DNA of 64,000 nt, taken from positions 6,406 through 70,405 of the IMG/VR virus record IMGVR_UViG_3300017987_005475. The stretch is one strand, 5' to 3'. The notes beneath the pieces were generated by a model. That model was not told where the DNA came from, did no database searches, and saw nothing but the letters and a program-made list of their open reading frames with translations. Both the position numbers and the translations under genes were made by a program. This document shows positions 5,785 to 36,280 of this stretch, piece by piece. The first letter of the stretch is position 1. Every line of letters starts with the position of its first letter. This DNA comes from a virus. Its lineage: Duplodnaviria > Caudoviricetes.

Positions 5785-7041
5785 TTAGTCTGCCTGCCGG
5801 ATTTTCTCCTTGACTTTCGCCGCAAGCATTGGCTCCAACTCGCCAGCCTTCTTGCGTCCGATGTCCCCCAACTCCACGAGCGCCTGGGCTGTCACCAGAG
5901 CGTAGTCAGAGGGCTCGTTGTTGTCCGCCGTCGTAAACCGCACGTACATCTTCCCAACCGCCCCCAGCGGCATTGACGCAAGATGCTGCGCCGGGTCGAA
6001 ACCCTCCAACCCGTTCAACTCATCCATCAATGCGTTTAGGAAAGCAACCGCCCCGCGCAATTCCTTATCGCATTCGGAGCGGGACATTTCTTTCCTCCAC
6101 TCGATGGCAGCCTTGAGATACCCCTTGATGCCATCGACCGTCGCTGTCGTCCGGGACCTCGCCTTTGCTACCCGGAATTTCAGTTTGGTCCCTTTCGTCG
6201 CCGTGTCAAAAATGAGGAAAATACAGTAATCCACGGCTCCAGCCTTACTCCCAGCCATGCGCTCGTAAAGATGGTCGATGTTTTCGCCCTTCACCTCGGC
6301 ACCGTCCACCGCCCGCATTGCACGATGCTCAGCCTTTTCCAAGGTTTGAACAGAGCGAGTCTGGTTGGCATAGACAGTGGCATCACGGGCTTCCTGCAGA
6401 TTCATGGTCTGCAAATTGACGGGGACCTCAGCATCAGGACCGTATGCCAAAGCGAAGAATGCCAAACGATGGCGACCGCTCCAGCATTGCAGATTCTTCG
6501 GACCATCGCTGAGATTTGCCACGTAGATATCCATCCAAGCGCGACCGGCTTCGAGAATAGCCACGGCGGCGTTTTTCACGCCTTTTGGAATCACGCCGGC
6601 AGACAGGTTGACCACGTTGCGCGTCGGTAATTCATGGAATAGCTCACCAACGGCTTCGCGCTCTGCTTTGCTGCCGATTGATGGCGGCTCCCCTCCGATG
6701 AAAACAGCAATGTCCCGGATTTTCGTGGGGGTGCCATTCAATCCACGCACCAACTGCTTCAGCGGAGGCAGTTCGCTCAATCCAACCTTTTTCAGAGCGG
6801 TAGCAATAAACCGTTCTCGTGCGGTCGGTTTGGGAGCATTCTCCGCTTTCGGCTTCCTGCCCCTGCGTTTCGGGGCGGGACTTTGCTGCTCCGCATTGCC
6901 GTCTGTTGGTGCGGCGCGTTTCGCTTTCTTGGCCTTCGGTGCTTTTCCGTCCGATGGTCCGCCCGTCATTGCCTTTTTCTCAACGCCGGAACGTTTCCTC
7001 GCCCCTTTGCCTCCGAATTCTTCCAATCCTTCCTTGCTCAT
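5785..7041 (-). CDS. ParB/Srx-like protein with Lys/Ala-rich N-terminus
   Basis: WSGRHRL resembles the ParB-N DG.HR motif; N-terminal KRRGRKPK basic stretch; AGGAG RBS before ATG at 7041. Confidence 0.5.
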   Translation of the reverse strand: MSKEGLEEFGGKGARKRSGVEKKAMTGGPSDGKAPKAKKAKRAAPTDGNAEQQSPAPKRRGRKPKAENAPKPTARERFIATALKKVGLSELPPLKQLVRGLNGTPTKIRDIAVFIGGEPPSIGSKAEREAVGELFHELPTRNVVNLSAGVIPKGVKNAAVAILEAGRAWMDIYVANLSDGPKNLQCWSGRHRLAFFALAYGPDAEVPVNLQTMNLQEARDATVYANQTRSVQTLEKAEHRAMRAVDGAEVKGENIDHLYERMAGSKAGAVDYCIFLIFDTATKGTKLKFRVAKARSRTTATVDGIKGYLKAAIEWRKEMSRSECDKELRGAVAFLNALMDELNGLEGFDPAQHLASMPLGAVGKMYVRFTTADNNEPSDYALVTAQALVELGDIGRKKAGELEPMLAAKVKEKIRQAD

Positions 7042-8083: not shown

Positions 8084-8093
8084 ATTATACCAA
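8084..8093 (-). promoter_or_regulatory. Putative extended -10 promoter TTGGTATAAT
   Basis: Intergenic, 35 nt upstream of the GTG start; identical 10-mer at 16360, 19062 and 36271. Confidence 0.65.
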
Positions 8094-14198: not shown

Positions 14199-14465
14199 CT
14201 ACCGCTTACGTGGTGCTGCCTTCAACAAACGCTGCAATCGCTTCTGCTCGCTCATTAACCTGGATGCAGACACAGAATCGCCGCTGCCCGTGCGAAAACG
14301 CTCTTCCAGTTCCGCACGACGCACCGGGTCCGAGTCCTCCAGCAGGAAATCATACCGTGGAGGTTCGCCATCCAACCCGAGCAAAACAAAACCGTGAGCC
14401 AGCAAGAAAGCAGTGAGGTAGTAATCACTCGTTCTGACAACTGGCTTGTCGTGGTCATCCGCCAT
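14199..14465 (-). CDS. DUF5659-like small protein (88 aa)
   Basis: Start MADDHDK at 14465; RTSDYYLTAFL motif, paralogous to 57415..57672. Confidence 0.65.
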   Translation of the reverse strand: MADDHDKPVVRTSDYYLTAFLLAHGFVLLGLDGEPPRYDFLLEDSDPVRRAELEERFRTGSGDSVSASRLMSEQKRLQRLLKAAPRKR

Positions 14466-15648
14466 GTTCAGCCTTATATTTAGCAACACACTTATCGCGG
14501 CTATCACACACTGCACACTCCGGGTGCTCAGGATCGTCACAAGTACCGTAACAATCCCAACTTGGCTCATCTTCCTTGGCAGCCGGCTCAGGTGTGGGTT
14601 CCGGCTCAGGTGTGGGCTCCGGCTCAGGTGTGGGCTCCGGCTCAGGTGTGGGCTCCGGCTCAGGTGTGGGCTCCGGCTCAGGTGTGGGCGCGGGCTCCGA
14701 CATTGCAGCCTTCTTTGGGGGCGCGGCTTTCTTCTGCGCAACAGGAGCATCTTCCTTTGGTGCCTCTCTGCCAGCCCCGGACTCTTCGCTGGAGGCGTTC
14801 TCAGCCCTTGCTGCCATCTCACTGACAGCCCCTTCGCAAAAACTCCGCACGTCGTCATGCATAGCGTCGAGGACAGATTCTATTGACAACATGCCGCCGG
14901 CGAATCTTCTCAGGTCGTGAATCTCCAAGGCTCGCTCTTCCTCGGTCAGCGGCGTCAATTTGACCTGGATGCCGTCCATGACAGCCTGCGCAGTATAACA
15001 GACACGCACGCCATTGTGCCCTTTGACAATATTGACATCCACTCCATCCTCGATGTCCCAAACGAGGCGGTCAAGTTGCCCACAAATGGCTTCGATGCCT
15101 CTGCTGGCTTCCATTCCGATATTGGCGACCTTGAAACCGAGTCGCTCCTCCTCTGTACCGTCTTCCGCCACTGTCACAACGTTTGGACTGCGACGGTCGA
15201 TGACATTCCACTTGAGTTGGACGGTTGGGCGACACTTATCCACCATGAACTCCAGTTCCTTCCGCTCCGCCTTGTCAAGCGGGTCTTCATCTCGCTCCTT
15301 TTGAAGTTTGTTGGCTTCTTTGAGCGTTTCTTTGGCAATTGCATAGGCAGCGCAAATCGGACAGGTCTTCCCGGGGGCGTCGTCTTCCGCTTCGATATCC
15401 CAGTCCCAACAATTGATCATTGGGGACATCCGCTCTTCTCCCTGAAACGCCTCATTGACACAAAGACCGCGTTCTTTTCGTTTCTTGTCCGGACCAATAT
15501 AATGCTGGTGAACCTCCAGACAATCTCCAACCAGGCGAAAGATGTTCGGACCATCTTCCAGTGTCGCGAAGACATTCTTCGTTTTGACAAAATTCCCGCC
15601 ACCGCGCTCTTTCAATCTCCTCAACTTCTCCAAGGTTTTGCTTGGCAT
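14455..15648 (-). CDS. Single-stranded DNA-binding protein (gp32-like) with PTPEPE linker and C-terminal Cys module
   Basis: Between UvsY-like gene and recA; CPIC motif, NVIDR, GVDVNIVK..GVRVCY pattern; acidic linker; AAGGAG RBS before ATG 15648. Confidence 0.65.
   Translation of the reverse strand: MPSKTLEKLRRLKERGGGNFVKTKNVFATLEDGPNIFRLVGDCLEVHQHYIGPDKKRKERGLCVNEAFQGEERMSPMINCWDWDIEAEDDAPGKTCPICAAYAIAKETLKEANKLQKERDEDPLDKAERKELEFMVDKCRPTVQLKWNVIDRRSPNVVTVAEDGTEEERLGFKVANIGMEASRGIEAICGQLDRLVWDIEDGVDVNIVKGHNGVRVCYTAQAVMDGIQVKLTPLTEEERALEIHDLRRFAGGMLSIESVLDAMHDDVRSFCEGAVSEMAARAENASSEESGAGREAPKEDAPVAQKKAAPPKKAAMSEPAPTPEPEPTPEPEPTPEPEPTPEPEPTPEPEPTPEPAAKEDEPSWDCYGTCDDPEHPECAVCDSRDKCVAKYKAEHGG
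14583..14690. repeat. Six tandem 18-bp units (CCGGCTCAGGTGTGGGCT) encoding PTPEPE
   Basis: Direct inspection: four identical internal units and two terminal variants. Confidence 0.95.
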
Positions 15649-15683
15649 CCCTGCTCCTTTCAATTAGGTGCTTGCCCACGACG

Positions 15684-16325
15684 CTAACATGCGCCAGTTC
15701 GTTTTTTAGCCTTTTTCTGCATTTCCCTTATGTTGCGCATTGCTTGCCTGCCGCTGATTCTACTGGCAGGAGCATCCACCTCAACAAATTCACCACGAAC
15801 TCCGGTATCTTCCTCCTCGTCTGTCTTCCCGTAGATATATGGTTGTGAGCGTCGTTCGTCCGACAAAGTCAAACCGTGCTCACGCAAAGCATAGGACTTC
15901 TGCCGCCATGCTTCATACCACGTGTCCATTGTATCCGACTGAGACTGTAGCTTGTCTATTGCAGATTCTTTTTCGCGGATTTGAGCCTCGTTTTGGAGAA
16001 ACATGTACGCCTCAATGTCCCCAATGGTCACTTTTTTGGTCGTTTGTGCCTCTAAGCCCTTTCTTGCCTCTTGATATTTCCTCTTTTTCCAGTGCTCAAA
16101 TTCTCGTTGGGCTATCTGGAGTTCCCTGGCAGCCGTTTTCTTCAGAACTCCGTAATAGGCAATCGCCGCCGGCTGCATGGCTACGTGCTCGTCAAACAAA
16201 CCATTTCGCACATCGAGCAGTTCAGGACCCGGCACGTCAAGCCGAACTCCCGTTATGTCTGCCTCTCCCGCTCGGTCGCAGGCGTCTTCAATGTTACCAA
16301 TGACTCTGTCTTTCTCGGTGTTCAT
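15684..16325 (-). CDS. Helical protein, possibly UvsY-like recombination mediator
   Basis: Long amphipathic helices, position next to SSB/recA; start ATG 16325 after AGAGGT. Confidence 0.45.
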   Translation of the reverse strand: MNTEKDRVIGNIEDACDRAGEADITGVRLDVPGPELLDVRNGLFDEHVAMQPAAIAYYGVLKKTAARELQIAQREFEHWKKRKYQEARKGLEAQTTKKVTIGDIEAYMFLQNEAQIREKESAIDKLQSQSDTMDTWYEAWRQKSYALREHGLTLSDERRSQPYIYGKTDEEEDTGVRGEFVEVDAPASRISGRQAMRNIREMQKKAKKRTGAC

Positions 16326-16359
16326 ATCGACCTCTAAAAACATCGCCAATGATGATACG

Positions 16360-16369
16360 ATTATACCAA
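16360..16369 (-). promoter_or_regulatory. Putative extended -10 promoter TTGGTATAAT with upstream A-tract
   Basis: Intergenic copy of the recurrent 10-mer. Confidence 0.65.
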
Positions 16370-16393
16370 TGGGAGAGAATTTTTTGCTTTTTT

Positions 16394-17020
16394 TTAGCGA
16401 CCCTTGAGAGAATCAATCACGCGCCGCAAATCAGCATTCCCCGCTTTGCCATCTCGAACCTCACCCAACACTTTGACGAGGGCTTCATCGTTTGTTTCAC
16501 GCAGCAGAACCCTCGCCTCCTGCAATAGTATCCTGCCTTCATCTTGCGCTTTTTTCTCAATCTGGCGTTTCTTTAATTCGGTCTTTTTCTGATAAAAGAA
16601 ACTCTGAAGCACGTTGTTACTAAGAGCCAATGGCAAGCCCGGCGAAAGTTTATCATTGCCAGCAAAGAAATCATCAAAAAGCCAGTTCATATACTCCTCG
16701 ATGCTCGCACCTTGTTTTTCCAGTTTTTCCACCATTCCTTCGGCTATCTTCATTTGCGCGCCGCCACCCATCGTCGCCTGGTATTCGATGTCATACGATT
16801 CAAGATACTTCTGTTTGAATATGGCAAAAACCTTTGCTCCGATTTTTTGACTGTCTTGTTTTGCCATAGATTTGCCCAAATGCTCCTGGATTTTTTCAAA
16901 CAACACCAGGAGAGCCCGCTTCACGTCCGGGTCTTCCCACATCCCGTAAACATCAGACATCTCAACCAGCCAATAGTGAAACCGCTGGTAGTTGTCAGTC
17001 GGTACTCTCTTTTTTGCCAT
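16394..17020 (-). CDS. Hypothetical protein (start uncertain; ORF open to 17074)
   Basis: Co-oriented helical ORF. Confidence 0.7.
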   Translation of the reverse strand: MAKKRVPTDNYQRFHYWLVEMSDVYGMWEDPDVKRALLVLFEKIQEHLGKSMAKQDSQKIGAKVFAIFKQKYLESYDIEYQATMGGGAQMKIAEGMVEKLEKQGASIEEYMNWLFDDFFAGNDKLSPGLPLALSNNVLQSFFYQKKTELKKRQIEKKAQDEGRILLQEARVLLRETNDEALVKVLGEVRDGKAGNADLRRVIDSLKGR

Positions 17021-17474
17021 CTTGCTCTCGCATGTAGCCTCTGACTCGCTCCACCGTTTCATCGTTAGTGTCAAACAAAAGCGTCATGAGACAATCCGCG
17101 CGTCCTGCCCTGCGAAACATCTGAATCGTTGTCTCTCGCACTATTTGGTCTTCGCTGTTCAAGAAAGCCACGAGTTCTTCTATCCCCTCTCGACTCTTAA
17201 ACAGCACCCTCAGCATTGCTAACAGAGTTTCCTTCTCTGTTTCGTCAGCAGCCACCTTGATGATTTCCCCAAAACGACCTGCTCCCCCGATTGCCTGAGC
17301 CGCGCAACGCCTCGTCCAACCATCCTCAGACCTCAAGAAAGGAATGAGACAACTCACATCGACGACACGCTTGTATTTCAGCACGTTCTTAACGTGGCGG
17401 GGGGATAAACGTTTTTCCTTCGCTGCCCAATAGAACATTTCCACCGCGCGCTTAGGAAAAAAATCACTCCCCAT
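16995..17474 (-). CDS. HEAT-repeat protein
   Basis: Repeats LIPFLRSEDGWTRRCAAQAIG and LVAFLNSEDQIVRETTIQMF, LMTLLFDTNDETVERV; start overlaps the helicase C-half stop. Confidence 0.75.
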   Translation of the reverse strand: MGSDFFPKRAVEMFYWAAKEKRLSPRHVKNVLKYKRVVDVSCLIPFLRSEDGWTRRCAAQAIGGAGRFGEIIKVAADETEKETLLAMLRVLFKSREGIEELVAFLNSEDQIVRETTIQMFRRAGRADCLMTLLFDTNDETVERVRGYMREQDGKKESTD

Positions 17475-18450
17475 AGCCTTTTTCCTGCAAAGCAATGATC
17501 AGTTCGTCCGTTCCCGCCGCTTCTATTGCCGCCCACTCTGTCAAAATGTCCTCCGGATTCTGAATTCCAAGGCTATACAATTCCTGCGCCATTGCCTTGG
17601 TTATACCATCGAGACTACATAATTTGACAAGTTCTTCCGAAATCCTATACTTCATCCGCACCGCTAGCCGCTCAAAAAGTGACCTATCCCACCCATCCGC
17701 CTTTCCAATCGCCTGGAGCGCAGCTATAACTCGTGGTGCGTCCTCTTTTACATTCCGCACAGTTTCGGCACATTTTCCTAAAGACGGTCCTCCCAGTAAC
17801 GACCACCACACGATGCCAAGAGCAGTAGCCCCTTTTGGGTCCAGCCCCATTGACAGCACTTGACTGGTGTATTCCTCAACGTAGTGCGAATAGCCACCTA
17901 TGTAAACCTTCTGGTGCGGTACGGTTGCAATAGCCCAAGCGAGGCAAAAAGCGCTTTCACTTTCCTGCGGGAGCACCTCGCGGAAGTTTTGACGCCAACG
18001 AAATACGTCAACAGGATGGAAATAAAAACCAGACGCAATCCTCCCTATCTCGGTCGGAAAGAGAAAATTTCCCCTCTTCACCACGGCTTCCGACTCAATC
18101 AGAATTGTCAACACCTCATCCAGGTCAATCTCGCTGCCGCTGAACGCTGCAAAACTCCGTTCGTGCCAGGATTTGACGTCCTGAATTGTGGTGACATTTC
18201 GATTGGCTATTTCCGACACGAGGTGAAAAACAATCTCATCAGAACAATCCAAGGTCGAGGCTACTGCCAGTTCCTCGGCGTCCTTCATCGCCGCCTCGAC
18301 CTCTTCAACCTCACTTTCGCCCACGATGATATCCACAACGCCACACTGTCCGGCTTTTCTGGCACACCGACCCTGCATCTGCATCATCTCTGTTATGGGG
18401 ACTTTCGTACCGCCACGATGAAAGCCGACAATGATAACCCGGTCAGCCAT
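17464..18450 (-). CDS. Hel308/Ski2-like SF2 helicase, C-terminal half (motif VI, winged helix, ratchet, HhH)
   Basis: Begins MADRVII; motif VI QMQGRCAR; PTEIGRIASGFYFHP; HhH LDGITKAMAQELYSLGI. Confidence 0.85.
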   Translation of the reverse strand: MADRVIIVGFHRGGTKVPITEMMQMQGRCARKAGQCGVVDIIVGESEVEEVEAAMKDAEELAVASTLDCSDEIVFHLVSEIANRNVTTIQDVKSWHERSFAAFSGSEIDLDEVLTILIESEAVVKRGNFLFPTEIGRIASGFYFHPVDVFRWRQNFREVLPQESESAFCLAWAIATVPHQKVYIGGYSHYVEEYTSQVLSMGLDPKGATALGIVWWSLLGGPSLGKCAETVRNVKEDAPRVIAALQAIGKADGWDRSLFERLAVRMKYRISEELVKLCSLDGITKAMAQELYSLGIQNPEDILTEWAAIEAAGTDELIIALQEKGYGE

Positions 18451-19033
18451 CTAGGAGGTCCGCCAACTTACCCAAAGCCCTGTAGAATTCCTCGCGCTTC
18501 TCTTGGCTTCTCATGTTCAGAGGACTTGTATGATAGAGCGGCAGAACCGGTTTGCCGTATTGCGGAGAATACAGCCTCTCGCCGTGTACCTTCGTGATGC
18601 CTCTCTGTCCCGTTATCTGCTTGAGCGCAGGACCACCCAGTGTGACAATGACAACTGGGTCAATCACAGCAACTTCTTTCTGCAGAAAATCTCGGCACAT
18701 AGATGTCTCTTCATCGGTCGGTCGTCGATTTCCTGGCGTAAAACAACGTACCGTGTTGGTAATGTAGAACGATGAGCGGTCGAGTCCCAACACCTCCTTC
18801 GTAGCCTTGTCGAAAAACGTTCCAGAGGGACCAACAAAAGGACGCCCTTGCTCCACTTCTCTAGCACCGGGATTTTGACCGACGACCATGATTCGGGCTT
18901 TCAGACACATATTGCTAAACACGTTACTGAGAAACTCGCCTTTCTTCGTCTGGATTAGTTTTCCACCAATTGCACAACGCCGACAATTGTGGCATTGACG
19001 TTCGAGGTCACACAGAGCCTTAGATTTATCCAT
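18443..19033 (-). CDS. Uracil-DNA glycosylase, family 4 (Fe-S type)
   Basis: CHNCRRC cluster ligands, IMVVGQNPG, GRPFVGPSG, YITNTVRCF, PLYHTS. Confidence 0.93.
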   Translation of the reverse strand: MDKSKALCDLERQCHNCRRCAIGGKLIQTKKGEFLSNVFSNMCLKARIMVVGQNPGAREVEQGRPFVGPSGTFFDKATKEVLGLDRSSFYITNTVRCFTPGNRRPTDEETSMCRDFLQKEVAVIDPVVIVTLGGPALKQITGQRGITKVHGERLYSPQYGKPVLPLYHTSPLNMRSQEKREEFYRALGKLADLLDG

Positions 19034-19040
19034 CAAATTT

Positions 19041-19081
19041 CCTCCGGGACTTGGTTATCTCATTATACCAACTAAGCCCGG
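19041..19081 (-). promoter_or_regulatory. TTGGTATAAT promoter inside a hairpin overlapping the UDG RBS
   Basis: Minus strand CCGGGCTTAGTTGGTATAATGAGATAACCAAGTCCCGGAGG; CCGGG/CCCGG arms, RBS GGAGG overlaps the 3' arm. Confidence 0.55.
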
Positions 19082-19091
19082 CATTTTGTAT

Positions 19092-20006
19092 CTATCCAAT
19101 ATTAACGCCAGCAGAAAGTGTGGACGTGCTAATCAATACGTCCAGTCCAGAAGTTGGGTCGTCAAACTCTCTTTCTATCTTCTCGCGCCTTTTTGGGGAC
19201 AATGATGCATTGTGAAAGGCACATGAGATGCCGTGTCCTTTCGCCGCTTGCGCCAGTTCCTTGCCAAAGCGTTTGCTGTGAACAAACGCAATAACCTTTT
19301 CTCCGGGAGACGCTTCACTGATTCTCTCAATCGCAGCCCTGAGTTTGCCATCCCAATCCGATTCGTTGGTAGTGAAAAACCTCGTGATAATCTTGCTCGG
19401 TCTCCAATCTCCACACGCCTTGATTGTGCGCTTGCCATTCAAACTCTTAACCCATCGCGCAACTTGCCCTGCATTGCTCATTGTTGCTGACAGTGTGATA
19501 ATCCGTGCGGTCGGGTTCGCTTTTGTAAACCGCATCAAGCCGACTTCGACACTTCCCCCGCGCCCTTTCTGACCAATCAAATGGGCTTCGTCAACTACCA
19601 CGCAACAGACTTCGGACAACCATCGCTTATGAGCGCAACTCCGCGTGCGAGCGTCAAAAGACTCCGTCGTCAATAATATCAACCGTGCCCGCTGCAACTC
19701 ATCCAGCGTGGCAACACGGTCACCTGTGCTCAAGGCAATTCCACGTTCGCACAGTCCGCTCCGGTTTATCCACCGACGGTATTTCTCGGCACTCAAAGAG
19801 CGATAAGGGGATAGATAGACGCACCTACCCGTCGAACAGCCTAAGTGATACCCAAAGGCTGCCTCGGCGATGGCTGTTTTTCCCGTCGCGGTTGGAAATG
19901 AAACCACCAAGTTTACGTCTGCTGCGACATATGGGATAGCCGCTTCTTGGGCTTTGTTGAACTCTGGGAATGAAAAACGGAAATATGGAAATTCACTCGT
20001 TCTCAT
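19092..20006 (-). CDS. Hel308/Ski2-like SF2 helicase, N-terminal half (motifs Q to V)
   Basis: FNKAQ, PTATGKT, YLSPYRSL, VVDEAH, LSATMSN, FVHSK, FHNASL, ends STSTLSAGVNIG-stop. Confidence 0.9.
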   Translation of the reverse strand: MRTSEFPYFRFSFPEFNKAQEAAIPYVAADVNLVVSFPTATGKTAIAEAAFGYHLGCSTGRCVYLSPYRSLSAEKYRRWINRSGLCERGIALSTGDRVATLDELQRARLILLTTESFDARTRSCAHKRWLSEVCCVVVDEAHLIGQKGRGGSVEVGLMRFTKANPTARIITLSATMSNAGQVARWVKSLNGKRTIKACGDWRPSKIITRFFTTNESDWDGKLRAAIERISEASPGEKVIAFVHSKRFGKELAQAAKGHGISCAFHNASLSPKRREKIEREFDDPTSGLDVLISTSTLSAGVNIG

Positions 20007-20493
20007 TGACTACCACGGCGGCTCTCTCAACCTCCTCCAGAACGAGTTCCACCAGGCTCCCTATTGCATCAGGACCTATCTCTGCCAGTCCGCCGGCGTC
20101 CCCTCTTGGACCGTTTGTTTCCACCTGTTCGCCGTCAATTAGCACGAAGACCTCACCATCAGCGTGACATCTTACCACCTCGCAGACAACAGGTGGTTCA
20201 TGATCACTCTCGAATGGATGGCTGTCTGCTGATTTTCCTTTCTCGGTGTCTTTTCGCGTTAATTTTCCGGATAGCGCCCGCAGAAACATCTCAAAGGGCT
20301 CCGGAAACTCCCCTTGTCCTTTCGCATACACACCGTCGTACATTTCACTAGCATTTCGTGTAGCCTCCCGACAATTCTTCATTACAAGGCATTTTCGACA
20401 TTCTTCATGATCCGATTCAAACGTCCTAAAGCAAGCCCCCATCGCAATGTTCTCGGTAAGATGCCTGTAGCCGTCCCCTTGCACTTCGGGCAT
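19993..20493 (-). CDS. Hypothetical protein with N-terminal four-Cys module
   Basis: CFRTFESDHEECRKCLVMKNC; overlaps helicase start by 14 nt. Confidence 0.7.
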   Translation of the reverse strand: MPEVQGDGYRHLTENIAMGACFRTFESDHEECRKCLVMKNCREATRNASEMYDGVYAKGQGEFPEPFEMFLRALSGKLTRKDTEKGKSADSHPFESDHEPPVVCEVVRCHADGEVFVLIDGEQVETNGPRGDAGGLAEIGPDAIGSLVELVLEEVERAAVVVNENE

Positions 20494-20517
20494 GCCGTCC
20501 CCCCTTCTCTATTGTTC

Positions 20518-21627
20518 CTAAAACCATTCTGCACCTAGTTTCTTTTGCAAAAACGGGAGCGCCTTGTTGTGAAACACAGACCTCAGCCGGCTCGGAGGAA
20601 CACTAATTTTCCTACCGACTTTCTTGCCCAGTTCCCTGACCATCGCGCGTAGGTTCCCAAAGTGTTCGGGCACAGCAAAACAAGGATCATCAGGATCGCC
20701 ATAGCGCTGCGTGATGCTTTCTCGCTCGCATGGCTTTCCAGCAATGAGTTCTCGAATCGCAGCACGCGCCTGTCTGAGAGTCGTTTCCCCTGAGAGTTTG
20801 CGAAACGATTCGTAGTGACCGGGCAACTCATAGCGTTCGGCGTCGGGATCGCCAAACAGAGCAACGATTTCGACTTTATGTTTCGGATAGGTGTCAATCA
20901 GTTCCCGAAGGGTCTCGCGAAAATCAATGTAAAAGTGCGAGCGAACAGCATCATCGTGGGTTCTGCCATAGTACGATACAAAGCGATGCTCATTCTCCTC
21001 GTCAACACCGTCGTATCTCGCTGAGCATGCTTCGGAGAGGCGACATTTGACACACTCGGGATGCGCGGGGTCATCGCAGTTTCCGAAACATGGCCATTCC
21101 TTGCTTTTCTTTTTCTTTTTGAAAACCCGAATCGGACGCGTAGTATAGCCCTTGTCAAAATTCTCATACGCCATCCGCGCTGTGCTTATGTCGCATTCGC
21201 CAGAGGTAACAGGAGTAGGATTGACTAACCGGTGCATTCTTTTGTGCCGCTGACGATGGAACCGCAGATGTCCTAGCCTCCTCCAAATAACGTTGCAAAC
21301 CCACGTCGAGAATAAGATCCGCTTCGGCTCCTCGCCTTGCTTTTGAATCTTTGGAGGATAGGGATGATACAAGGGCAATTTGCTCCACACGTGCGCGCAG
21401 AGGTCGTGCAACACATCGTGGTATTCTGCAGACGTATCAGAATGCCAGTGTCGTCCAATATACCGACAAAAGAGCCCCCTAATCGAGTCCCAAAAAAGAT
21501 CCACCATCCATGGCTCTGCCCATCCCTGTCCTACCGCAACAGCCAGGCTCTCGGGGGTAGCCGGGTATTTTCGGCTCCTCTCTTGCACGTGGGTTTTTTC
21601 AGACGACGCGCCGACGTGGCTGCTCAT
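20518..21627 (-). CDS. Putative phage sigma70-family factor with central Cys module
   Basis: Region-2-like DVLHDLCAHVWSKLPLYHP...FSTWVCNVIWRR; region-4-like C-terminus SRLRSVFHNKALPFLQKKL; GGAGG RBS before ATG 21627; TATAAT at 21695-21700. Confidence 0.55.
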   Translation of the reverse strand: MSSHVGASSEKTHVQERSRKYPATPESLAVAVGQGWAEPWMVDLFWDSIRGLFCRYIGRHWHSDTSAEYHDVLHDLCAHVWSKLPLYHPYPPKIQKQGEEPKRILFSTWVCNVIWRRLGHLRFHRQRHKRMHRLVNPTPVTSGECDISTARMAYENFDKGYTTRPIRVFKKKKKSKEWPCFGNCDDPAHPECVKCRLSEACSARYDGVDEENEHRFVSYYGRTHDDAVRSHFYIDFRETLRELIDTYPKHKVEIVALFGDPDAERYELPGHYESFRKLSGETTLRQARAAIRELIAGKPCERESITQRYGDPDDPCFAVPEHFGNLRAMVRELGKKVGRKISVPPSRLRSVFHNKALPFLQKKLGAEWF

Positions 21628-21707
21628 ATTCCCCTCCTCTTTAGGTCGCCGATTATCGGCACTCAGCACAGACATACTTCCCGTCAGAGGCAGCATTATA
21701 TCGATCT

Positions 21708-22793
21708 TCATCTACGGTTGCAATTGATTTCTGCTTTTTCCATAACTTTTCTGAGATCTTCTTCAGGAAGACTTTTCGGGTCATAACCCCATGGCGTGTT
21801 GAGTTTAACCGTTGGGAAGAATTCTTTCAACGACTCATACGCTTTTCGTTGAGCCTCGTATCCTGCAGAGTCCCCATCGAACATCAAGCCGACGCGACTG
21901 GGATTCGCCTCAGCCAGCAGCCTGATTTGCGCGGAATGCAATCTCGCTCCGTCTATCGCTACGCCGAAATATCCCAATTGTCGCAGTTTCATGACCTCCC
22001 TTGCACCTTCGGTCAACACGACGGCACAGCCACTCTGCAAATCGTCAAACCCAAAGAGATGTTCGGCACTCCGGAAATTCTTTGGGAACCGCGTCTTCTT
22101 GTAGTCTCTTTCTCCCAATGTCGGGTGTCGCTTGAGCCACGTGTCTTTGCCGAGAACGTCTATCGCAGTAAACCCGGCTAGCGTACCTCGATGAAAATGA
22201 GGAACAATTACGCGATCAGCATAGAATCCACTACGAATTTGCACACACCTGTATAAATCCACCGTCTCGCGCGTTATCAGTGTCGCCTTCTTGCCAGGAG
22301 GGTGCATGAAAAACTCATAGCCGGAGCGGTACATTCTCCCCGTCTCTATCCAGCGCTGCGCTAGTTCGATATCTGACGGCGGCTCTTTTTTCTCCGGCTC
22401 CGCCCGAACCAGTTTCTTCAATTTCACCTGGGCGCGGCGGATGTTGGCAACGCTCATATCCATACCTCCAGTCATCCATTCCGCTGCCTCTTTTGGGGTA
22501 CACTTGCGCAGACGAGACGCGACAAAGACCAAGTTCGACCCGCGACCCTCTGTAAAGCAGAAAGTCTCTCCCGTCTTCCGGTTCACAGTCCATTTCGGAT
22601 GCGATGGCTCCCGTCCCACAAACAGGCGATGATCCGGACACCAACCCCATGTCTGGTCTCCGCGTTCCCTGTCTATCCGTACCCCCAGTCCGTCCAGCAC
22701 GTCTCGCACCTCAACCCTGGGCATCAACCACTCGATATCTCGGAACGGCTCATTCTCCTCGTCGGTTTCTCTCGCCGGCTCTGGTCTGGACAT
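21708..22793 (-). CDS. DnaG-like DNA primase
   Basis: Zn-finger WCPDH...FCF, TOPRIM VLTEG and MFDGDSAG, DP motif. Confidence 0.88.
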   Translation of the reverse strand: MSRPEPARETDEENEPFRDIEWLMPRVEVRDVLDGLGVRIDRERGDQTWGWCPDHRLFVGREPSHPKWTVNRKTGETFCFTEGRGSNLVFVASRLRKCTPKEAAEWMTGGMDMSVANIRRAQVKLKKLVRAEPEKKEPPSDIELAQRWIETGRMYRSGYEFFMHPPGKKATLITRETVDLYRCVQIRSGFYADRVIVPHFHRGTLAGFTAIDVLGKDTWLKRHPTLGERDYKKTRFPKNFRSAEHLFGFDDLQSGCAVVLTEGAREVMKLRQLGYFGVAIDGARLHSAQIRLLAEANPSRVGLMFDGDSAGYEAQRKAYESLKEFFPTVKLNTPWGYDPKSLPEEDLRKVMEKAEINCNRR

Positions 22794-36270: not shown

Positions 36271-36280
36271 ATTATACCAA
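36271..36280 (-). promoter_or_regulatory. TTGGTATAAT copy overlapping the stop codon of the hub gene
   Basis: Identical to the three intergenic copies, but partly dictated by coding sequence (KLV-stop). Confidence 0.4.

Follow-up and report, generated by a model that had tools for sequence, protein, structure and literature searches.

A Hel308-like helicase of phages encoded in two conserved halves, with a uracil-DNA glycosylase gene in the gap between them

The locus analysed here lies in a 64,000-nucleotide (nt) stretch of viral DNA (Duplodnaviria; Caudoviricetes), hereafter the window, which covers positions 6,406 to 70,405 of the 70.4-kb IMG/VR record IMGVR_UViG_3300017987_005475. The record is classed as a provirus and is 21% complete by the CheckV estimate. 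Four tightly packed minus-strand genes were found, encoding in order the N-terminal half of a Hel308-like helicase (N-half), a uracil-DNA glycosylase (UDG), the C-terminal half of the helicase (C-half) and a HEAT-like protein (Table 1). The two halves are in different reading frames, and the neighbours of the split helicase include RecA/UvsX-like, single-stranded DNA-binding protein (SSB)-like and primase genes. The original prediction, made from the letters of the window, had described a helicase split by the UDG gene, and this description is examined here against related loci.

The N-half comprises the first RecA-like domain (RecA1) and the first part of the second (RecA2), with the Walker A sequence TATGKT, DEAH, SAT and a motif V of TSTLSAGVN; motifs I, II, III and V are all located in this half. 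The C-half supplies the last RecA2 strands with motif VI (QMQGRCAR), followed by winged-helix, ratchet and helix-hairpin-helix (HhH) domains. As had been predicted, the N-half ends with TLSAGVNIG before its stop codon and the C-half begins with M-ADRVII. The ATG of the C-half and the stop codon of the UDG gene share 8 nt (ATGGCTGA, 18443-18450), and the start of the HEAT-like gene shares 11 nt (ATGGGGAGTGA) with the C-half stop, so that both the overlap and the coupling of the HEAT gene to the C-half agreed with the earlier description. For the UDG gene, GGAGG is positioned 7 nt upstream of ATG 19033, and the longest open reading frame (ORF) begins at TTG 19036.

The Pfam scan assigned DEAD (1.1e-24) and only positions 4-81 of 110 of Helicase_C to the N-half, and returned no match for the C-half. 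The N-half aligned with the N-terminal part of the NCBIfam Hel308-type models, its first stretch covering 36-213 of PRK02362, and residue 4 of the C-half aligned to PRK02362 position 349, showing that the halves match consecutive parts of the model. A profile built from 54 C-halves matched residues 340-671 of the Hel308 structure 9b15_A (E 2.7e-33) and 342-674 of 2p6r, and the NCBIfam Hel308 model was also matched at 631-680 of 704. Both halves matched phrog_6819, annotated as 'Holliday junction branch migration helicase', with the N-half at 18-302 of 645. The bit scores were far under the equivalog cutoffs (142.6 versus 887 for PRK02362 and 98.4 versus 1200 for helicase_Hel308), indicating that the protein is Hel308-like and no equivalog of archaeal Hel308. 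An intact orthologue of 675 amino acids (aa), encoded by the 595-kb huge phage LR756511.1, reads TLAWGLNLPARRVVILG across the cut point. Together with the model alignments, this orthologue places the cut in the loop at the end of motif V, with no residue lost and one methionine added, and the claim that the halves rebuild a complete Hel308-type architecture was thereby confirmed. Like archaeal Hel308/Hjm and the Pol theta/Brr2 cassettes (9b15, 2p6r, 2zj2, 2va8), the joined halves carry superfamily 2 (SF2) motifs I-VI, the C-half corresponding to Hel308 340-671. They differ from archaeal Hel308/Hjm in being two chains, in their viral gene, in the HEAT-like partner gene and in scoring under the equivalog cutoffs.

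Related loci were found with small alignments and a degenerate DNA pattern; the related-locus search with the single C-half as query returned no locus. About 20 independent contigs, which derive from different samples, have the order N-half, UDG, C-half, HEAT-like, at 30-55% identity to the window. The wider shared order runs from a primase gene through the N-half, UDG, C-half and HEAT-like genes to two unknown genes, an SSB-like gene and a RecA-like gene. In these loci (numbered with L, Table 1) GVN[ILVM]G is always the end of the N-half, L006 having GVNL, and MADRV is the start of the C-half. The C-half was further searched against 1.84 billion representative proteins, which gave 502 matches, and the best 150 (numbered with P) were analysed. 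The original prediction had pointed to relatives for the split versus the intact state, and both states were recovered among these 150. Of them, 67 measure about 330 aa and have their first residue exactly at the cut (M[AS]D[RK]V...), and intact helicases of 650-1300 aa account for another 54. Residues Q24, G27, R28 and R31 of motif VI were invariant or nearly so in 54 C-halves.

Purifying selection was seen on all four genes. The ratio of nonsynonymous to synonymous substitution rates (dN/dS) was 0.05 for the N-half, 0.07 for UDG, 0.095 for the C-half and 0.12 for the HEAT-like gene, as calculated from the single pair L021 versus L022, all other pairs being saturated. The conserved cut, the preserved motif VI and the low dN/dS suggest that the two-chain helicase is retained as a functional protein, as the original prediction had supposed.

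An artefact, a pseudogene or a gene that is rejoined at a later step, by way of an assembly chimera, decay, a group I intron, a split intein or a programmed frameshift, is very improbable. The window does come from a single metagenome-derived record, in which a chimera is possible in principle, and its halves sit in different frames. Against this, about 20 independent contigs of differing sample origin share the layout, which speaks against a chimera, and the dN/dS of the N-half and C-half, from the one pair, speaks against neutral decay. An Rfam scan of 16000-21000 (E<=1) was empty, with no intron or ribozyme core, and the UDG ORF that fills the gap is in another frame. No Hint/intein domain was found in either half, and both end or begin at helicase residues, so that the earlier statement that no intein or intron core is visible held. 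Among relatives the spacing of the halves varies between a 4-nt overlap and about 1.9 kb, and the frames differ; therefore no conserved splicing or recoding signal is possible.

Trees of the C-half region were built with FastTree (124 rows) and as a quick tree with IQ-TREE (47 rows), and were in agreement. Clade A, which bears UDG in each locus seen, clade B and the intact helicase P0039 lie on one side of a well-supported branch (95*), and all other intact helicases lie on the opposite side. With a root placed among the intact forms, a single ancient cut would account for both clades. In the tree, clade A and clade B form a polytomy, and clade B may be nested in clade A. P0041 and P0123 start at the cut residue yet nest among intact helicases, and may represent a second, independent cut at the same site, judging from their position in the trees. 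When the loci of P0041 and P0123 were sought, only intact or intein-bearing relatives were returned. Two other proteins of about 340-360 aa, P0101 and P0119, align with the C-half only beyond motif VI, and their N-terminus is conserved but unrelated (...IEADSIEDAISWIKENDP...). Such proteins may reflect another cut point or a stand-alone ratchet/HhH protein.

The gap content varied among relatives, and the UDG gene was not present in all of them. In clade B (L018-L020, comprising the lineages L018/L020 and L019), the halves adjoin with no UDG between them: the N-half end ...GVSL-TGA overlaps ATG-IDKV by 4 nt (ATGA), the C-halves start with MIDKV, and the HEAT-like gene and the downstream synteny are the same as in the UDG-bearing clade. 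UDG was not found anywhere on the clade-B contigs, which are 4-10% complete. The gap of L060 is a 24-nt spacer without UDG. In this 1.5-kb contig the C-half itself (438-1547) is present as two ORFs (438-1046 and 1062-1547), which may be a further split, a frameshift or an assembly error. In L050 (343-390), the gap holds a 17-codon ORF, MSSWEELRAKFLEEQNG, which joins a UDG-like start in frame to a UDG end. Its relative L055 (1-312 compared) retains UDG, and the C-halves of the two are about 88% identical in DNA; by this comparison L050 is a clear case of a recent UDG deletion that left the helicase split.

These loci bear directly on the possibility that UDG caused the split and is an obligatory third subunit bridging the halves, within a helicase-UDG(-HEAT) machine for uracil removal from DNA unwound at forks. 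The original prediction had leaned this way, with a possible helicase-UDG-HEAT complex for repair or against cytosine deamination. Several observations are in its favour. UDG comes first after the N-half, or next after the putative endonuclease ORF described below, in every clade-A locus that has it. It is under selection, diverges together with the halves and carries a clade-specific motif A. In the window, as in several relatives, its translation is coupled to that of the C-half, and the UDG loss documented in L050 implies that clade B could also be a secondary loss. Nevertheless, the cut persists without UDG in the two diverged lineages of clade B, in L060 and in L050; other genes lie between UDG and either half in several lineages; and the 150 best relatives (10 long and 10 further long or atypical proteins scanned) yielded no protein in which UDG is fused to the N-half or to the C-half. 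A causal and bridging role of UDG is therefore doubtful, and the original statement that the helicase is split by the UDG gene was not upheld.

The UDG gene itself is conserved. Its product scored 117 bits with the Pfam UDG family (cutoff 24.3) and 123.0 bits with TIGR00758, just under the cutoff of 125.3, and aligned to the family-4 structures 4zbx (9e-26), 1l9g and 1ui0. As in family 4 UDGa (4zbx, 1l9g, 1ui0), the cysteine ligands of the 4Fe-4S cluster (an N-terminal CxxCxxC and two later cysteine columns, in 9 lineages) and the H[PT]SP pattern of motif B, HTSPLN in the window, are kept, and the fold is probably shared as well. Unlike in that family, motif A is GQNPG in all 9 lineages (GQSPG in L006) where GE[AG]PG is expected, and vGEaPG stands opposite it in the 4zbx alignment. 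MUG/TDG and SMUG1 use a catalytic residue of this type, an asparagine, as the third residue of the motif. UDG activity is likely, given the family-4 alignment, the kept cysteines and motif B, and an asparagine as in MUG/TDG and SMUG1. The mean pairwise identity was equal for UDG and the N-half (0.52), and UDG identities correlated with those of the halves (r 0.61-0.72; N-half versus C-half, r 0.92). UDG identity thus tracks the halves, indicating vertical inheritance of UDG since at least the ancestor of clade A.

The UDG gene had been credited with its own promoter, and this was supported in part. In the spacer upstream of UDG, TTGGTATAAT is a perfect extended -10 element. The window holds four exact copies, against about 0.1 expected by our own estimate for a random 10-mer on both strands, and each copy precedes a start codon by 11-35 nt on the coding strand. 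TTGGTATAAT is likely a promoter element of the phage, and an internal promoter before UDG is plausible from this motif. On the other side, a sigma-70 scan gave no full sigma-70 promoter upstream of UDG, and the N-UDG spacer is not conserved in relatives, in which the N-half stop often overlaps the UDG start. The copies at 8084 and 19062 are flanked by short inverted repeats; hairpins around the element were no better than shuffles (z -0.5).

Other genes were detected in the gap of relatives. In L052 and L067, an ORF of 275-303 aa between the N-half and UDG encodes zinc-ribbon repeats together with a nuclease domain of the DUF559/Vsr-like type (2.9e-9 and 7.6e-11). The ORF is missing from L008, a 72-83% relative of L067, and the L052 and L067 copies are 72% identical, compared with 44-65% for the flanking genes. 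This pattern is the behaviour of a free-standing homing endonuclease, for which the ORF is a putative candidate; alternatively, it may encode a T:G-mismatch repair partner of UDG. No homing endonuclease gene is present in the gap of the window itself. Small ORFs between UDG and the C-half were found in several lineages and none in the window; they fall into families of about 140 and about 90 aa (Table 1) and have no Pfam match. Intact relatives carry inteins at TLAWG^CNLPA (TLAWG^C-NLPARRV), a site that precedes the cut by four codons; further inteins were found in motif II (DE^CH), including in the split N-halves of L047 and L067. Taken over the two sites, the inteins comprise mini-inteins and LAGLIDADG-bearing forms. 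The clustering of the nuclease, the inteins and varied cargo marks motif V of this helicase family as a hotspot for mobile elements. The original prediction had set a repair enzyme in place of a selfish nuclease, and the exclusion of a selfish nuclease was not supported in view of the Vsr-like ORF in L052 and L067 and the inteins four codons upstream of the cut.

Taken with the trees, these results are best explained by an anciently fractured, intein-less, functional two-chain helicase of a large uncultured phage that carries UDG as cargo, a reading to which we assign a probability of roughly 0.75. A Hel308/Hjm-type SF2 helicase gene was cut in the loop at the end of motif V, inside the second RecA-like domain, and the two polypeptides of 304 and 328 aa would reassemble non-covalently, with RecA2 strands contributed by both chains, into an active ATPase/helicase. 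The stop/start overlaps (UDG/C-half/HEAT-like in the window, and also N-half/UDG in L004 and L010) would favour balanced synthesis. The gap would be a stable slot, occupied by the vertically inherited UDG gene and, in relatives, by a sporadic Vsr-like nuclease gene and one or two small ORFs, and UDG would be a selected and co-expressed tenant that is not required for the cut.

How the cut arose is a separate matter. The favoured origin is that a free-standing homing-endonuclease cassette invaded the coding sequence of motif V, a stretch that inteins also target in intact relatives; it is put forward tentatively, at somewhat under an even chance. A simple fission by point mutation or indel without a mobile element, in which the junction later gained UDG, nuclease and small ORFs by illegitimate recombination, seems less probable than this and, on balance, unlikely. 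Clade B would fit as its minimal state, with an ATGA overlap and no foreign DNA, and the nuclease occurs in 2 of about 20 loci with gap content varying. Such a fission is at odds with the starts of P0041 and P0123 among intact helicases, which hint at a recurrent site-specific event, with the inteins that target the same motif in intact relatives, and with the homing-type nuclease in the gap, whose presence differs even between close relatives. If clade B is nested in clade A, its lack of gap DNA would moreover be secondary.

Several points weigh against an ancient fracture of this kind. The intact P0039 nests inside the split clade (clade A), so that a re-fusion or a misplacement must be assumed. 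The dS values of the sole usable pair, L021/L022, are near saturation (1.2-2.1). The order of events is compatible with the cut, UDG or the endonuclease having come first, and the endonuclease, known from just two lineages, could have invaded an already existing intergenic site at a later time.

The reassembled helicase most likely has a non-replicative role in fork repair or recombination. This assignment is made by analogy with archaeal Hel308/Hjm, and from the RecA-like, SSB-like and primase neighbours, the match to phrog_6819 and the presence of a DnaB-like helicase elsewhere in the window, where a large DNA polymerase and another SF2 helicase are also encoded. A more integrated arrangement can be envisaged, in which the two-chain helicase, the GQNPG UDG and the HEAT-like protein would form one stoichiometric machine, made by coupled translation, for uracil excision at stalled forks, the motif-V cut would serve as a docking or regulatory point, and the gap would be kept open by recurrent homing-endonuclease traffic; this is the more speculative proposal and is considered quite unlikely.

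The HEAT-like protein gave a weak Pfam HEAT_2 match, and its AlphaFold 2 model (pLDDT, the predicted local distance difference test score, of 89.8) is a ten-helix alpha-solenoid. A Foldseek search with the model returned only designed armadillo/alphaRep repeat proteins, which gives no functional lead. In clades A and B the gene follows the C-half, and it was not found beside intact helicases. This link to the split state is weak evidence, because the intact helicases are in more distant phages with other synteny.

Among known systems, the nrdA gene of Aeromonas phage Aeh1 is reportedly split by the mobE homing endonuclease without an intein and works as two polypeptides. The helicase resembles it in that an inserted gene divides the gene of an essential enzyme with no intein involved. 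The two differ in that the Aeh1 insert is the homing endonuclease itself, whereas here it is UDG and the cut also occurs with an empty gap. Fractured phage genes are DNA-metabolism genes interrupted at their own locus, where the gap holds a free-standing endonuclease of the GIY-YIG or Vsr-like type, usually together with a split intein and in one SbcD-like case without (Dassa et al. 2009, PMC2677866). The present locus shares with them the parental order and orientation of the halves at one locus, purifying selection, foreign gene(s) in the gap and, in L052 and L067 only, a Vsr-like endonuclease there (PMC2677866). In contrast to the fractured genes (PMC2677866), no split intein is present and the halves are not ligatable, the usual tenant is a repair enzyme, UDG, and no endonuclease, a whole deep clade (30-55% identity) is fixed for the state with no allele-level polymorphism, and the host gene is an SF2 helicase, outside their eight enzyme types. 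A search of the literature returned no description of a split Hel308-type helicase with UDG in the gap.

The locus represents an SF2 motor domain that was cut through its second RecA fold and kept under selection for very long without an intein, and the cut point would be a natural split site for helicase engineering. Fractured genes had been regarded as transient scars of endonucleases or inteins; the present state is fixed across a clade, and the gap carries useful cargo in the form of UDG, small ORFs and occasionally an endonuclease. The co-inheritance of helicase, UDG and HEAT-like genes suggests a repair module in huge phages. For annotation, both halves are to be named as one split helicase instead of two partial or 'hypothetical' genes.

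Table 1. Features of the split-helicase locus in the window, and related loci, gap ORFs and inteins in relatives. Positions without a locus number refer to the window.
Feature	Position or members	Strand	Remark
Helicase N-half, 304 aa	19092..20006	-	ends ...STSTLSAGVNIG-TAG (GVNIG-TAG)
Spacer, N-half to UDG, 55 nt	19037..19091	-	holds TTGGTATAAT 19062-19071 and GGAGG 19041-19045
Family-4-like UDG, 196 aa	18443..19033	-	ATG 19033; Pfam UDG 9e-34
Helicase C-half, 328 aa	17464..18450	-	starts MADRVIIVG
HEAT-like gene, 159 aa	16995..17474	-	most likely start ATG 17474
Cys-rich ORF upstream of N-half, 166 aa	19993..20493	-	from ORF list and sequence
TTGGTATAAT, copy 1	8084-8093	-	11-35 nt before start codon
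TTGGTATAAT, copy 2	16360-16369	-	11-35 nt before start codon
TTGGTATAAT, copy 3	19062-19071	-	11-35 nt before start codon
TTGGTATAAT, copy 4	36271-36280	-	11-35 nt before start codon
IMG/VR loci with shared gene order	L004/5, L006/7, L008, L009, L010, L011, L014, L021/45, L022		
JGI metagenome loci with shared gene order	L046, L047, L049, L052-L059, L061, L067		
Vsr-like gap ORF, 275-303 aa	L052:1478-2389, L067:2176-3003		between N-half and UDG
Gap ORF family, about 140 aa	L008:5573-6001, L067:3573-4001, L021:5613-6008		
Gap ORF family, about 90 aa	L021:5368-5646, L022:5723-6001, L047:3100-3354, L049:2449-2712		
Motif-V inteins	P0063, P0069, P0086, P0120, P0151		TLAWG^CNLPA
Motif-II inteins	P0054, P0061, P0098, L047:492-2504, L067:123-2123		DE^CH

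Upstream of the N-half, the stop codon of the Cys-rich 166-aa ORF shares 14 nt with the N-half start, and this ORF is weakly conserved in L004 and L011. The SSB-like protein of 402 aa (14455-15663, minus strand) has a run of PEPEPT repeats followed by a C-terminal Cys-rich module. This module recurs in a 397-aa protein encoded at 20518-21711, as detected by local tblastn between both in L004 and L011.

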